Positions 10,036-24,705 of a stretch of DNA of 27,398 nt are shown in pieces. Source of the DNA: Candidatus Zhuqueibacterota bacterium (GTDB lineage: Bacteria > Zhuqueibacterota > Zhuqueibacteria > Thermofontimicrobiales > Thermofontimicrobiaceae); contig JBMOPW010000006.1 in NCBI GenBank assembly GCA_049322915.1, forward strand, positions 1 to 27,398, read 5' to 3'. Numbering within the stretch: the first letter of the stretch is position 1; every line of letters begins with the position of its first letter. A model generated the notes under the pieces. That model was not told the DNA's origin and did not search any database. It was given only the letters and a program-made list of their open reading frames with translations. The translations under genes were made by a program, and so were the position numbers.

Positions 10036-11322
10036 TTGAAAACATTTCATAAAATAGTAAATGGCGATAGCAGGGAGATGAACCTGTTGCCCGACAATTC
10101 TATCCATCTCGTCATTACTTCTCCTCCGTATTGGCAGCTCAAAGATTATGGGTCTGATGAACAAATCGGTTTTAATGAGAGTTACGAAAGCTATATAAAC
10201 AATTTAAATCTTGTCTGGAAAGAATGTTATCGAGTACTGCATTCTGGCTGCCGACTCTGTATAAATATTGGAGATCAATTTGCGCGCTCTGTCTATTACG
10301 GACGTTATAAGGTCATTCCCATCAGGACAGAAATAATTAAATTTTGCGAGACGATCGGATTTGATTACATGGGTGCAATAATCTGGCAGAAGATTACGAC
10401 AACCAATACCACTGGCGGCGCTACGATTATGGGCAGCTTTCCCTATCCACGGAATGGAATTTTAAAGCTTGATTATGAATTCATTTTAATCTTTAAAAAA
10501 CTGGGTATTCCACCTAAGCCAACAACCGTACTGAAAGAATTATCTGCAATGACCAAAGATGAATGGAATGATTATTTTTCTGGTCATTGGAATTTTGCAG
10601 GTGTTAAACAAAATGGGCATCTTGCCATGTTTCCGGAAGAATTACCCAGGAGATTAATTAAAATGTTTGCCTTTGCCGGCGACATTGTGCTAGACCCGTT
10701 TCTTGGCAGTGGAACAACGTCTCTGGCCGCACGAAATTTAGGTAGAAACTCGGTTGGTTATGAAATTAACAAAGAGTTTATTTTGAAAATAAAAGAGAAG
10801 CTAAATGTAAACCAAACAGACATTGAAGGGACTCAGTACAATTTTTTATCCGATAGCTTGAAGAAAGACCTTAAAAAAGAAATTGAAAAGTTGCCTTATA
10901 TTTTTAAAGACCCGCATAAGCTCGATAAAAAGATTGATCTAAAAAAATTGCAGTTTGGTTCCCGTATTGATCAAGACAGTTCGAAACGCCAGGAATATTA
11001 TACTGTAAAAGAAGTCCTTAGCCCGATACTGCTAAAATTAAATAACGATTTAGTCATTCGATTGCTTGGCTTAAAAGACAAGAAAATCGTAAATAGTGAA
11101 GCGATGGAATTTCTTGTTGAAAAAATAAAGGGCCAAAAAGTATTTTTAAAATTTGATGATAAAAAATACGACGAACAGAATCGTCTGCTGTGCTATTTGT
11201 ATTTAAAGAACAGAACATTTATAAATGCCCATTTACTAAAAAAAGGACTGGCAGAAGTTGATACCACAATTGATTTTAAATACAAAAACAATTTTTTGAG
11301 TGCAGAATTGCATAGCATGTAA
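10036..11322 (+). CDS. Beta-class amino DNA methyltransferase (probably N4-cytosine) fused to a C-terminal SNase/thermonuclease-like domain
   Basis: Motif IV TSPPY precedes H.AMFP and motif I LDPFLGSGTT. The C-terminus shows IRLLG, KV.LKFD..KYD..NRLLCYLY and FINA.LLKKGLAEV of the staphylococcal-nuclease fold. The gene is visibly AT-rich. Confidence 0.88.
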   Translation: MKTFHKIVNGDSREMNLLPDNSIHLVITSPPYWQLKDYGSDEQIGFNESYESYINNLNLVWKECYRVLHSGCRLCINIGDQFARSVYYGRYKVIPIRTEIIKFCETIGFDYMGAIIWQKITTTNTTGGATIMGSFPYPRNGILKLDYEFILIFKKLGIPPKPTTVLKELSAMTKDEWNDYFSGHWNFAGVKQNGHLAMFPEELPRRLIKMFAFAGDIVLDPFLGSGTTSLAARNLGRNSVGYEINKEFILKIKEKLNVNQTDIEGTQYNFLSDSLKKDLKKEIEKLPYIFKDPHKLDKKIDLKKLQFGSRIDQDSSKRQEYYTVKEVLSPILLKLNNDLVIRLLGLKDKKIVNSEAMEFLVEKIKGQKVFLKFDDKKYDEQNRLLCYLYLKNRTFINAHLLKKGLAEVDTTIDFKYKNNFLSAELHSM

Positions 11323-20917: not shown

Positions 20918-22423
20918 TTATTCCTCGTGAAAAATATCCGCCGAGAAAATTTTGATGCGCGTCCCTTCTTTCTGCCAGGCATTGGATGATAAACCGGCTT
21001 TCTGGCAGGTATGATCCAGAAAAGTCTCCCGATTCCAGCCATACTCCGTGGCAACCTGCGGCAAAAGCAATCCACTATGGCTGCCCCGTTCAATGATGAT
21101 CCCGTGTTTGCCGATTTCGATCTCCTGAATGTCAGTGATTTCACGAATGGGCGTGAGGACTGAAATTTCAATTTCCAATTGCGCCACTTCATTTTTTGTC
21201 ACGGACGGGAATCTCGGATCGCGAAACGCCGCTGCCTGGGCCATCTCCATGATGGTCTCGTCCAGAGGTAACACCGCGGAGACATACCCGATACATCCCC
21301 GAAGCATGCCTTTTTTCGTGAGCGTGACAAACGCTCCTCGTTTCTCTTTGAGGACAGGAAACGCATGTTTCAGCTTCGGCAGTTTCTTTCTGTCGACGGC
21401 CTTTTCGATGGTCTGCCGCGCGAGCATTAGCAGATACTGTTTCTCCGCTTCGGTCAATCCGCTCTCGACGCCGATGTGCTCCTCCTTCATATTTTCATCC
21501 GCTTTGTAAATTGCCACAGCGCCATAGCCAACGACGTAATCATTCCGATTGCCGGTCACGTCGCCGGAATTGGTTTGAAACACGAGAGTCGCTTTATCCG
21601 CGTCCAATTTCATGGCGACCATCTCCGCGACAAGGATGCCGCCGGCGCCGCAGGCCATGGCATCTTCGTGCTGAAATGCCTGGTACAGTTTTTTCGGATT
21701 CAGTTCCACGACCGTTTCCAGCGTCCGGGTGTCAGTTTGAACGCACTCGTCATAGCTGTAACCGTGATACAAATCGCTGCTGGCGACGATCAGTACGTTT
21801 TTATCCTTCACCGCATGCGCAATGGCATCGGCCAGTCGCGTGCAATTTTCCCAGGAATGATCCCAGAACACGATGGGCACAATTTTCAAATCCGGAATTG
21901 CCAATTGCAAAAATGGCAGTTGAATTTCCAGCGAGTGCTCGTCGCGATGGCCTTCCCAGCTAAACCGGATTTGATCCGATTGCGCGATGAGCGAATCAGC
22001 GATTTCTTTGGCCACCGGAACAATTCCCAGCGGTGTTTCATAGCCATTTTTATTGAAAACCGAAACGCCATGAAATGCTTCACGATGGCTGGGGGCTATC
22101 ACGATGACAGCATCGTAGTGATTGCCCATCACCTGTTTATAGGCATGACCGGCCACCGCTCCGGAATAGGCATACCCGGCGTGCGGAGAAATCAGGGCGA
22201 AAATCTGCCCATGAATATCCGCTTTTTTCGCATTCTCCAGAAAGGAAGTGATTTCCTTTCGGAGCTTTTCCGGATTGGATGAATACCACGTACCGGCCAC
22301 AACAGCTTTTCTGATTTCCTGCGGGTCCATAGCGTTCTTTTCAACCTCCTTTTTAGGTTGAGCATTACAATTTGTAAAAAGAAGAAAAAGCAAAAGGTCG
22401 AAGACTGCCAATTTGAATAACAT
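20918..22423 (-). CDS. amrB: AmmeMemoRadiSam system protein B (Memo) and protein A (AMMECR1) fusion
   Basis: Memo part: R.AVVAGTWY, ISPHAGYAYSG, EHSLEIQLPFLQ, VASSDLYH. AMMECR1 part: GAFVTL, LRGCIG, DPRFP, GLLLPQVA, KAGL. Start at 22423 (signal-like peptide) or 22330. Confidence 0.93.
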   Translation of the reverse strand: MLFKLAVFDLLLFLLFTNCNAQPKKEVEKNAMDPQEIRKAVVAGTWYSSNPEKLRKEITSFLENAKKADIHGQIFALISPHAGYAYSGAVAGHAYKQVMGNHYDAVIVIAPSHREAFHGVSVFNKNGYETPLGIVPVAKEIADSLIAQSDQIRFSWEGHRDEHSLEIQLPFLQLAIPDLKIVPIVFWDHSWENCTRLADAIAHAVKDKNVLIVASSDLYHGYSYDECVQTDTRTLETVVELNPKKLYQAFQHEDAMACGAGGILVAEMVAMKLDADKATLVFQTNSGDVTGNRNDYVVGYGAVAIYKADENMKEEHIGVESGLTEAEKQYLLMLARQTIEKAVDRKKLPKLKHAFPVLKEKRGAFVTLTKKGMLRGCIGYVSAVLPLDETIMEMAQAAAFRDPRFPSVTKNEVAQLEIEISVLTPIREITDIQEIEIGKHGIIIERGSHSGLLLPQVATEYGWNRETFLDHTCQKAGLSSNAWQKEGTRIKIFSADIFHEE

Positions 22424-22485
22424 ATTCCCGAAGCTCCTGATTTGATTCAAACATGAACTCAGGTGCGAAATAAAATCGACGTAGC

Positions 22486-23622
22486 TTATTGCCACACCCC
22501 GGCGATCGCCTCGCCGCATTTGCTGCAATGGTTCACCTGCGCCAATGAATTCTGAACAACGGTGTAGCCCATTCGCCGGATCAGCAGTGCCTGACAATGG
22601 GGGCAGTAGGTGTTTTCACCGGTATTGCCCGGCACATTGCCAATATAAGCATAATGCAGGCCAGAATCAAGCGCAATTTCCCTCGCCGTGGTCAGCGTTT
22701 CCACGGGCGTCGGCGGCAGATTCTTGAGTCGATACTGGGGATAAAAACGGGAGAAGTGAATCGGCACATCCGGCCCCAATTCCTTGTTGATCCACTGACA
22801 CATGTGCCGCAGCTCCTGGGTGCCGTCGTTCAAAGTCGGGATGATGAGATAGACAATTTCAAGCCACACGCCCGACTGCTTCACCAGGACCAGCGTATCC
22901 AGCACCGGTTGCAGATGACCGTTGACCATTTTCTGGTAAAAATCCTCGGTGAACGACTTGAGATCAATCTTAACAGCGTCGAGCACCGTGCACAGATCCT
23001 TCATGGGCTCGGGTTTGATGTAACCATTGCTGATCATCACGCTCTTTATTTTTTTCACGTGACCCGCTTTTGCGCTATCGAACATGTACTCCGAAAAAAT
23101 GACCGGCTCGGTATAGGTGTAGGCAATGGAGGCGCAGCGGTGTTTGCCGGCGGTCTCGGCGACGCGGGTCGGCGGCATGTCCATGCTCGGTACCTGATCC
23201 GGCCGCGCCTGGGAAATCTGCCAGTTCTGGCAAAATTTGCACAGCACATTGCAGCCAACAGTGGCAATGGAAAAGGCGTCGGTCCCGGGCAGAAAATGAA
23301 ACAATGGCTTTTTCTCGATGGGGTCAATATTGGCCGTGCACGGCTTCCCGTAGACCAGTGTGTAATAGACGCCCCCGTGATTTTCCCGAACGCCGCAATA
23401 GCCGGTTTCCATGTCATCGATCACGCATTCCCGGGGACAAAGCTGACAGCGAATTTTTCGATTGGGCAATTTTTCATAGTAGCGAGCTTCGTGCAGATTC
23501 GGGGGTTGTTGGCGATTCGCGTTCATCGCCAATAACGGCGCGCCGGCTAACGCGCATGCCCCACAGGCGCACGCGCTCGCGGTTAAAAAATCCCGGCGCG
23601 ATATGTCGTTACGACGTGCCAT
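22486..23622 (-). CDS. amrS: AmmeMemoRadiSam system radical SAM enzyme with a twin-arginine signal peptide
   Basis: CQLCPREC..CGVR, DPIEKKPLFHF.PG, radical SAM motif CNVLCKFC(QNW), IAYTYTEP, HFSRFYP and C-terminal CPHC/CSKC. N-terminus is SRRDFL plus a hydrophobic stretch. Confidence 0.95.
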   Translation of the reverse strand: MARRNDISRRDFLTASACACGACALAGAPLLAMNANRQQPPNLHEARYYEKLPNRKIRCQLCPRECVIDDMETGYCGVRENHGGVYYTLVYGKPCTANIDPIEKKPLFHFLPGTDAFSIATVGCNVLCKFCQNWQISQARPDQVPSMDMPPTRVAETAGKHRCASIAYTYTEPVIFSEYMFDSAKAGHVKKIKSVMISNGYIKPEPMKDLCTVLDAVKIDLKSFTEDFYQKMVNGHLQPVLDTLVLVKQSGVWLEIVYLIIPTLNDGTQELRHMCQWINKELGPDVPIHFSRFYPQYRLKNLPPTPVETLTTAREIALDSGLHYAYIGNVPGNTGENTYCPHCQALLIRRMGYTVVQNSLAQVNHCSKCGEAIAGVWQ

Positions 23623-23624
23623 GT

Positions 23625-24626
23625 TCAAACCTGTACAATTTGAATTGCGTTCAAATCATTCACGCCGAGCCGATGTCGGGCATCGGCTGCCGTGGCAATA
23701 TAGGTCGGCTCACGACCGGCCTCTTTCAGCGAAGACATGCCTTTTTCCCGCCGTTTCTTCTCGATGATGTCCCAGGCCACGCTGTCCAGCGCCACCATGT
23801 CCCGGCCAACGAGCAGGCCATTGAACGGCCAGGCCCACTGCGGCATGAAAGGCGGGCCTCCCTCGTATTGTGCGGTCAGCGCATCGGTGATGGTGATCCG
23901 CGTCTTTGATCGAATGGCTGGCAGCATGTTGACGTCGGCGATGAATGGATCGCCGCGATTGTCGTGGTACTTGTTGGGATTATGAATGGCGCCGAAAAAA
24001 TTTTTCATCGCATTGGTGACGCCAACGATGCCATGATCTTTCATCACCGGCACGTTGATGATGGCGCTGCAATAGCGCAGCACGATATTGCTGATACAAC
24101 TCCCCACTTCGCCAAATTCGAAGACCTCGTCGCTGTAGCCGGCAAGGTCGCTGCCAAAGCATCTCACCCCGTCGCCATTCGGCCGAATGGCAAATCCGGC
24201 CTTCTCCAGATCGCGATTGGAACGATCCCAGATGATGATGTTTCGCCCTGGCACACCGGCGCGTTGCAAACCTGCAATGATTGCGTCTACCAGTTCCGGC
24301 GACGACGAAATGCCGCGGCCGGCAAGACAATTCACTTTGATTCCCACCACGTCTTTCTTCGACACCACTTTCTGCCAGGCTTGTTCCGAATCCGATACCT
24401 GAAAATAGCGCTTCATGGCTACATCCAGCAGCGCGCTGACCTGAGCAGGAATCAACCAGCCGCCGGCATCCCGGACGGAATCGCGCCGTGCGATCACAAC
24501 TGTCGACACACCCGCTGTCCCGACGACTGGTCGATTCTTCGCCGATGCCGGAAAATCCCGAAGGAATCCTAAGGAAAGCGCTCCCAGAGTCTGCACGGTT
24601 CGTTGGAGAAATGTACGTCGCTTCAT
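23625..24626 (-). CDS. DUF362 domain protein with a twin-arginine signal peptide
   Basis: GGGAG RBS then MKRRTFL...ASA, VGIKVN, INVPVMKDH..GVT.AMKN.FG and D.VALD. Confidence 0.88.
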   Translation of the reverse strand: MKRRTFLQRTVQTLGALSLGFLRDFPASAKNRPVVGTAGVSTVVIARRDSVRDAGGWLIPAQVSALLDVAMKRYFQVSDSEQAWQKVVSKKDVVGIKVNCLAGRGISSSPELVDAIIAGLQRAGVPGRNIIIWDRSNRDLEKAGFAIRPNGDGVRCFGSDLAGYSDEVFEFGEVGSCISNIVLRYCSAIINVPVMKDHGIVGVTNAMKNFFGAIHNPNKYHDNRGDPFIADVNMLPAIRSKTRITITDALTAQYEGGPPFMPQWAWPFNGLLVGRDMVALDSVAWDIIEKKRREKGMSSLKEAGREPTYIATAADARHRLGVNDLNAIQIVQV

Positions 24627-24676
24627 AATCTCCCTTCGGATAGGTGAATTCATACGAGGTTCAAAGGTGCACATTA

Positions 24677-24705
24677 AGTATATCAATTTTGGAGTTTACT
24701 GTCAA
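24677..24705 (-). promoter_or_regulatory. Sigma-70 promoter of the DUF362-amrS-amrBA operon
   Basis: TTGACA-17 nt-TATACT with an extended -10 TG, 50 nt upstream of ATG 24626. Confidence 0.75.

Follow-up and report, generated by a model that had tools for sequence, protein, structure and literature searches.

AmmeMemoRadiSam is a known yet unexplained system whose three families are the radical S-adenosylmethionine (SAM) enzyme AmrS, the Memo protein AmrB and the AMMECR1 protein AmrA. We have analysed a 27,398-nt stretch of DNA from a Candidatus Zhuqueibacterota bacterium (contig JBMOPW010000006.1, the whole of which is called here the window) that encodes an AmrS and an AmrB-AmrA fusion together with a DUF362 protein, all three carrying N-terminal leaders of the export type. 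From the comparison with homologous loci we concluded that leader-bearing AmmeMemoRadiSam is a real and widespread branch of the system. In addition, we found a previously overlooked putative second start of the fusion, located just after its signal, from which a cytoplasmic form is probably made as well, so that one gene would serve both compartments.

Organization of the operon

As stated in the original prediction, which a model made from the letters and reading frames of the window, a near-consensus promoter precedes the genes for DUF362, AmrS and the AmrB-AmrA fusion. All of them lie in one run on the minus strand. The putative sigma-70-type promoter (TTGACA-17-TATACT with an extended -10, TG; positions 24705-24677, minus strand) matches the consensus at 11 of 12 positions. 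Since the six promoter-like sites found are about as many as in shuffled sequences (4.4 ± 2.0), it is the position and not the number of such sites that is informative. The first gene (23625 to 24626, minus strand) is preceded by a ribosome site and encodes a DUF362 protein of 333 amino acids (aa; PF04015, 68 bits) with a modelled N-terminal fold of LarA, the lactate racemase. Two bases after its stop codon begins amrS (22486 to 23622, minus strand), encoding a 378-aa radical SAM enzyme that resembles the pyruvate formate-lyase activating enzyme (PFL-AE; TIGR04337, 407 bits, cut-off 220). The third gene (20918 to 22423, minus strand) encodes the long form of the AmrB (Memo)-AmrA (AMMECR1) fusion, of 501 aa (TIGR04336, 266 bits, cut-off 26; TIGR04335, 194 bits, cut-off 99). 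Thus, all three AmmeMemoRadiSam families pass their NCBIfam cut-offs and cluster in a single operon. The AmrA part contains the RGCIG and DPRF motifs (tested as RGChG and DxRa), and H49 and H81 of MEMO1 are aligned in the AmrB part, the match to C244 being an ACG motif only, outside that alignment. The host genome, which is 96% complete, encodes TatC (E 7e-73), a single AmrA (that of the fusion) and two AmrS, the second of which lacks a leader and lies on contig C44. Close homologs carry the label candidate division KSB1.

Export leaders and the AmrS branch

AmrS starts with a twin-arginine leader (23527 to 23622, minus strand; cleavage site uncertain) that reaches 23.9 bits with the Tat (twin-arginine) signal model TIGR01409, whose cut-off is 16.7. 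Its CxxxCxxC cluster motif (23230 to 23253, minus strand) was invariant in 96 of 96 sequences. We examined 111 AmrS, namely those of the 30 best loci of 61 relatives, of the best 80 of 575 collection loci and the C44 copy. An RR-x-F-L-type motif followed by a hydrophobic stretch was present in 103, 7 were without it and 1 was cut off. The leaders diverge otherwise, yet motif and hydrophobic stretch are kept. An ATG with a strong ribosome site downstream of the motif was found in just one of the 103 sequences (any start codon, 11/103), and the absence of a conserved start after the motif indicates that the leader belongs to the protein. In the DUF362 leader (MKRRTFL..ASA; 24540 to 24626, minus strand), the RR motif is conserved in 102 of 104 homologs. 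We also applied a twin-arginine rule after TatFind to window proteins, homologs and genome frames. The window DUF362 and AmrS both passed, as did 83/103 leader-bearing AmrS, 0/7 leaderless AmrS, 90/104 DUF362 homologs and 36 of the 3074 long frames of the host genome.

Some AmrS loci were duplicated; after deduplication and addition of paralogs, 98 leader-bearing and 26 leaderless cores were available. A quick tree of 46 of the former and all of the latter, rooted at the midpoint, separated the two types across one branch (Shimodaira-Hasegawa approximate likelihood ratio test 94). Records of the AmrS hits are labelled KSB1, Calditrichota, Aminicenantes, Brocadiales (anammox), Latescibacterota and Zixibacteria, among others, and both AmrS types coexist in many genomes.

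The closest solved structure to AmrS is that of PFL-AE (E 9e-13), and the glycyl-radical activating families match it below their cut-offs (TIGR02493, 49 of 232 bits; TIGR02494, 34 of 174 bits); by this sequence kinship, AmrS belongs with the protein-activating radical SAM enzymes. Two loci (L266:2304-5102 and L267:2269-5067) encode an AmrS-like domain with about 590 extra residues (933 aa), in which Pfam names the radical SAM part only; they sit among glycosyltransferase- and epimerase-like genes. In the Kuenenia supplement, the single PFL-activating-like entry has no signal call and is not assignable to either AmrS copy.

The leaderless AmrS adjoins queH, which encodes epoxyqueuosine reductase, in 13 of 27 loci (L156-L170 and host C44:92136-93740). 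All of them come from one class, and this neighbourhood may point to a tRNA-related task of the cytoplasmic copy.

A probable second start of the fusion after its signal peptide

The fusion begins with a hydrophobic leader that ends in FTNCNA-Q, judged by eye to be a Sec-type signal peptide (22361 to 22423, minus strand) with a probable cut after C-N-A that leaves a mature Gln. Small residues at -3 and -1 were seen by eye in orthologs, and the same inspection found a hydrophobic leader in 24 of 24 neighbouring fusions and also in fusions of other phyla; the Cys of this signal may instead mark a lipoprotein. Short and long AmrB are both present in most of 50 further genomes. Among the genes examined, long AmrB(-A) had hydrophobic leaders and short standalone AmrB had none, the exception being a leaderless fusion in genome G096.

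The original prediction placed the start of the fusion upstream, with the signal, and overlooked a probable second start right behind it (22328 to 22351, minus strand; conserved in the class). A perfect ribosome site at 22351-22344 is followed by an in-frame ATG at 22330, six codons upstream of the Memo core, which would yield a signal-less form of 470 aa. We searched the post-signal window of 40 class loci for such starts, with a pairing energy of -7 or better. Results showed a second start in 24 of the 30 loci without a separate amrA versus none of the 10 with one; the background, 890 control windows taken from these genes, gave 33. The ribosome site persists despite changes in the encoded residues, and AAG-GAG encodes Lys-Glu before Val or Gly in just 49 of 538 cases genome-wide. 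Genome G014 has TTG in place of the ATG. In G043 and G055, where AmrB but not AmrA is also encoded separately, a ribosome site and ATG are located in the linker between the B and A parts. Beyond the class, no post-signal start was found in the 23 genomes with two AmrA. Since within the class the second start is confined to loci lacking a separate AmrA, the fusion probably yields a cytoplasmic form too.

Three further arrangements of these genes were observed. Locus L062:9175-10778 encodes unfused AmrB and AmrA, each with a signal peptide followed by a second start with a ribosome site. Locus L233 (G095, anammox-labelled) has tandem signal-bearing Memo genes, one alone and one fused to AmrA. 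A distant Memo-like protein with a lipoprotein-like N-terminus is encoded at C28:822-1922 of the host, with similar weak matches across the class.

DUF362 and its predicted complex with AmrS

The DUF362 subfamily of the operon (E < 1e-59) tracks the leader-bearing AmrS, being present in 47 of 50 genomes with this enzyme and in none of the 20 class genomes without it. It is the neighbour of amrS in 22 of the 24 class loci and in some 45 of the 80 wider ones; in anammox genomes it is present and unlinked to amrS. Of the 80 wider loci, 50 were taken through whole-genome searches.

AmrS and DUF362 are predicted to bind each other. Their complex model scored 0.67, the best control 0.00, and the mark applied is one that 116 of 157 solved pairs attain, against 2 of 215 mismatched ones, counts that are approximate for the alignments used here. 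The runs shared at least 95% of contacts, with a predicted local distance difference test (pLDDT) of the partner of at least 93. In the model, DUF362 residues 199-200, 215-222 and 256-261 contact residues 25-35, 85, 92, 96-101, 192 and 255-256 of the AmrS core, on the side where the Cys region of the N-terminus meets the cluster loop (R32, R39 and D43-K48 in PFL-AE). Residues conserved only in the leader-bearing branch are more frequent among the AmrS contacts (7/22) than elsewhere (23/314).

The DUF362 model, built on a 104-row alignment, had a predicted template modelling score of 0.86 and was closest to LarA nickel-pincer enzymes (Foldseek E 1.7e-5; Z 13.5-15.6 and root-mean-square deviation 3.1-3.5 over 204-210 residues, the next fold having Z 5.2). 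This match is expected, given that DUF362 and LarA share a Pfam clan (PMC11770544). A sequence search found no significant solved structure for DUF362, and the Atlas search returned DUF362 clusters plus one unnamed cluster only. His198-x9-Lys208...His221 (23964 to 24035, minus strand) is invariant in 104 of 104 sequences, and loop 215-222 is part of the predicted AmrS contact. These residues are spaced like His174, Lys184 and His200 of LarA (numbering from PMC11770544), a similarity of motif spacing and not a residue-level structural alignment. Equivalents of LarA His108 and Arg75 were not evident, the corresponding strand reading WDR in an unreliable profile alignment; this alignment, with 21 LarA sequences, was discarded (probability 2.6%, motif misaligned). 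No LarB, LarE or LarC was found above cut-off in the 96% complete host genome, which makes a standard nickel pincer unlikely for this DUF362.

As for its role, the cytoplasmic sets manage without this DUF362, which therefore seems to replace something that the cytoplasm provides, the reductant being the simplest candidate. A supply of electrons to AmrS is on these grounds the most likely of its possible roles, though we would not count on it. That DUF362 is instead a substrate of AmrS seems somewhat less likely to us, and we hold an equally reserved opinion of its being the next enzyme in a pathway.

The host has seven DUF362 matches and a LarA homolog. The six further copies (C2, C7 twice, C13, C14 and C32) comprise four with twin-arginine leaders and two leaderless ones with Cys-rich C-termini; one lies upstream of a polyferredoxin gene, two adjoin DUF6599-like genes, and the C2 copy has Thr in place of the motif His. 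The Cys-rich, ferredoxin-like ends and the polyferredoxin neighbour suggest redox work. LarA homologs (Lar_N) with catalytic motifs occur in 60 of 61 class genomes, including the host (C27:222-1502, L111), and LarC in 19 of 61. Among the 39 genomes that carry a leader-bearing AmrS, LarC was present in 5. Genome G003 (56% complete) was excluded from the LarC and oxidase counts.

A membrane protein and other co-occurring genes

A membrane protein with a spermidine-synthase fold recurs in 30 of the 80 wider loci, and the host copy is at C2:27649-29895. At E < 1e-55 it was found with a leader-bearing AmrS in 28 of 30 genomes of the class and 25 of 27 from elsewhere, whereas none of the 21 genomes lacking such an AmrS has it. 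Hydropathy of 29 sequences gives seven plus seven helices flanking the SAM-fold domain, and loop charge places this domain outside, with one loop off the pattern. A single-sequence fold of the protein was discarded (pLDDT 43). Perhaps this 14-helix protein handles SAM or its products outside; a role in SAM supply is a guess.

A strong match to a heme-copper oxidase (E < 1e-140) was found in 21 of 21 genomes without the leader-bearing branch versus 7 of 39 carriers, and the rarity of the oxidase in carriers fits an oxygen-sensitive enzyme outside.

In Scalindua-labelled loci (L076, L079, L081, L086 and others), two DUF1538 genes come after the leader-bearing amrS, then two more genes, presumably PII-like and CBS-like, and the membrane SAM-fold gene lies after this run on the opposite strand.

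Elsewhere in the window, a divergent near-consensus promoter (11/12) precedes a gene that is cut off by the contig end (24779-27398) and whose product, with its PKD and Ig repeats, looks secreted, and positions 10036-11322 encode a staphylococcal-nuclease-like domain joined to an N6/N4 DNA methylase domain.

Discussion

Both SAM and a reductant of low potential are required by radical SAM enzymes, and to our knowledge their chemistry is known only inside cells. Judging from the sequences, we nonetheless consider it quite probable that the set described here is located outside the cytoplasm, and, with somewhat less assurance, we think it likely that the operon is the outside copy of a compartment-duplicated system. 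From the observations and models above, we infer location, the use of both starts, roles and target as follows. AmmeMemoRadiSam would run twice per cell, in the cytoplasm and outside the inner membrane. AmrS would gain its iron-sulfur cluster in the cytoplasm and then leave through Tat in the folded state, in complex with DUF362 or next to it, and the Memo-AMMECR1 fusion would be exported via Sec. In lineages without separate cytoplasmic amrA/amrB, the second start would give a cytoplasmic form of the fusion for the leaderless AmrS. Outside, AmrS would cleave SAM, and the radical would go to or through the conserved Cys of AmrA, following the proposal of Balaji and Aravind (2007), towards a target that would be of the envelope or imported and not the cell's own RNA. 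Two accessories would replace cytoplasmic services, DUF362, docked on the cluster-loop side of AmrS, for electrons, and the membrane protein for SAM or its products. The complete combination, an outside radical SAM enzyme with a LarA-fold donor whose cofactor does not come from LarB/E/C, a SAM-bringing membrane protein and a dual-start Memo-AMMECR1, is put forward tentatively.

Several observations weigh against this model. TIGR01409 misses the window DUF362 leader, 20 of 103 AmrS leaders fail the stricter twin-arginine rule, and relic twin-arginine motifs exist, the NarG of Kuenenia having been called a probable false positive (PMC2881027). The AmrS tree is a quick, midpoint-rooted one, and the 80 wider loci were chosen from 575 as those most similar to the query. 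At the second start, the gap from site to ATG is 14 bases here, most sites in the host genome having 4-9, and six of the 30 loci lack a post-signal start, G015, G017, G034 and G058 having weak sites only. Beyond the class, a strong internal start in either place was found in 5 of 13 single-AmrA and 1 of 23 two-AmrA genomes, a count from assemblies of unstated completeness that omits the Calditrichota-labelled G069 and G073-G075 (unfused AmrB). The contact enrichment is partly circular, the same alignment having fed the complex model; AmrS 255-256 also lie inside the DUF362 contact, and the cluster-loop side is presumably the one that receives the reductant. Finally, the genomes of the co-occurrence counts are non-independent, the negatives being three to four families of one class, and seven carriers of the leader-bearing AmrS do have the oxygen-type oxidase.

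The leaders could be relics or membrane tethers of a chemistry that stays cytoplasmic, with the downstream ATG as the only real start of the fusion. The cofactor needs of radical SAM enzymes would be readily explained in this way, as would the strong and conserved internal start, the precedent of relic motifs and the uncertain cleavage site of AmrS. We consider this quite improbable: where a genome encodes a separate AmrA, its fusion lacks the second start (0/10 in the class; 0/23 post-signal beyond it), so that the signal of these fusions has to be translated, a conserved start after the leader is missing in AmrS (1/103), and the leaders diverge while retaining motif and hydrophobic stretch, with a leaderless paralog kept alongside. 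A different explanation accepts the export and makes DUF362 the substrate, AmrS and AmrB/AmrA building a pincer-like cofactor or modifying the His-Lys-His site in place of LarB/LarE/LarC. It would account for the LarA-like His-x9-Lys...His pattern on a loop that faces AmrS in the model, for a host with seven DUF362 and a LarA homolog and none of the three Lar proteins above cut-off, for the scarcity of LarC beside Lar_N in the class (19/61 and 60/61) and among carriers (5/39), and for the grouping of AmrS with protein-activating enzymes. However, Thermus thermophilus, Methanocaldococcus jannaschii and Sulfolobus acidocaldarius have AmrS and AmrB with neither DUF362 nor Lar_N, and Bacteroides thetaiotaomicron has DUF362 without LarC, AmrA or AmrB. 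Moreover, a cofactor could be loaded before Tat export, making export of the maturase unnecessary, and the invariant DPIEKK of AmrS (core 58-63) is absent from the named contacts, though an unnamed residue may touch. We regard this explanation as unlikely; its extension, the Amr system as cofactor maker for the entire LarA/DUF362 clan, is weakened by the same control genomes.

The third possibility is that the outside set degrades or salvages imported modified nucleosides or SAM-derived compounds, the link to nucleic-acid bases being catabolic. The RNA-base chemistry proposed for AMMECR1 (PMC2034487), the queH neighbourhood and the descent of Memo from a nucleoside phosphorylase-type fold (PMC7694686) point in this direction. 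On the other hand, the inspected neighbour clusters of the 80 loci, of which Pfam named just a part, contain no recurrent nucleoside transporter or nuclease family, and the queH link comes from the one class; we give this reading only a slight chance.

Returning to the outside copy of a duplicated system, the extracytoplasmic set with a DUF362 partner that had been proposed gains support from conservation, clade structure, co-occurrence and the complex model, and it is still a prediction. The claim that all components are exported needs amending in two respects: the fusion is probably also cytoplasmic, and the DUF362 of Aminicenantes has no leader of its own, which is compatible with its export as a passenger. 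Similarly, the argument against a nucleic-acid target stands for the leader-bearing branch and does not extend beyond it, given the leaderless AmrS beside queH.

If the model is true, the cell has to provide SAM and low-potential electrons beyond its inner membrane. Matched sets in both compartments would mean that the target class exists on both sides. In this branch at any rate, that would make the cell's own RNA a less plausible target than proteins, cofactors, lipids or small molecules. Conservation of AMMECR1 and MEMO1 extends to humans, and the exported branch narrows the old question of their reaction. It also offers handles: the predicted AmrS-DUF362 interface, the His-Lys-His site, the candidate SAM-handling membrane protein and the two-start gene, whose forms are separable by mutation. 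Anammox bacteria carry the exported set, and anammox Tat targets are predicted to reach the anammoxosome (PMC2881027).

Comparison with known systems

Balaji and Aravind (2007; PMC2034487) described the neighbourhood and fusions of AMMECR1, dioxygenase-like and radical SAM genes and proposed that radicals are transferred at the AMMECR1 Cys and that an RNA base is modified. The iron of MEMO1 is held by H49, H81 and C244, with no dioxygenase activity found (PMC11081632). No exported radical SAM enzyme or AmmeMemoRadiSam variant of this kind appeared in the literature searched (including PMC10924467, PMC6411480, PMC7159879 and PMC7694686), a search that excludes the main comparative study, Burroughs 2019, and Haft and Basu 2011, either of which may note signals. 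Nothing on location or DUF362 was seen in PMC10924467, PMC6411480, PMC13524815 and PMC12611868.

The operon resembles the known AmmeMemoRadiSam system (TIGR04335, TIGR04336 and TIGR04337) in uniting all families with intact catalytic motifs, and the B-A fusion had already been recorded (PMC2034487). It differs in the export leaders on every part, the added DUF362, the co-occurring membrane SAM-fold protein, the second start in the fusion and the leaderless AmrS paralog in the genome. With the LarA superfamily of nickel-pincer nucleotide enzymes (Pfam clan CL0471, which includes DUF362; PMC11770544), the DUF362 protein shares the fold and the His174/Lys184/His200 pattern; unlike LarA, it has no LarA_C match in its 333 aa, bears a Tat leader and comes from a genome in which LarB, LarE and LarC were not found. 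The membrane protein matches both the membrane polyamine aminopropyltransferase PRK03612 (190 bits) and the fused MFS-spermidine synthase NF037959 (69.5 bits), remains below the cut-off of the former (472) and has its 7+7 helices around the SAM-fold domain. PFL-AE, whose solved structure is nearest to AmrS, is a cytoplasmic enzyme served by flavodoxin; AmrS scores far under the PFLA cut-off and has extra Cys motifs at both ends.

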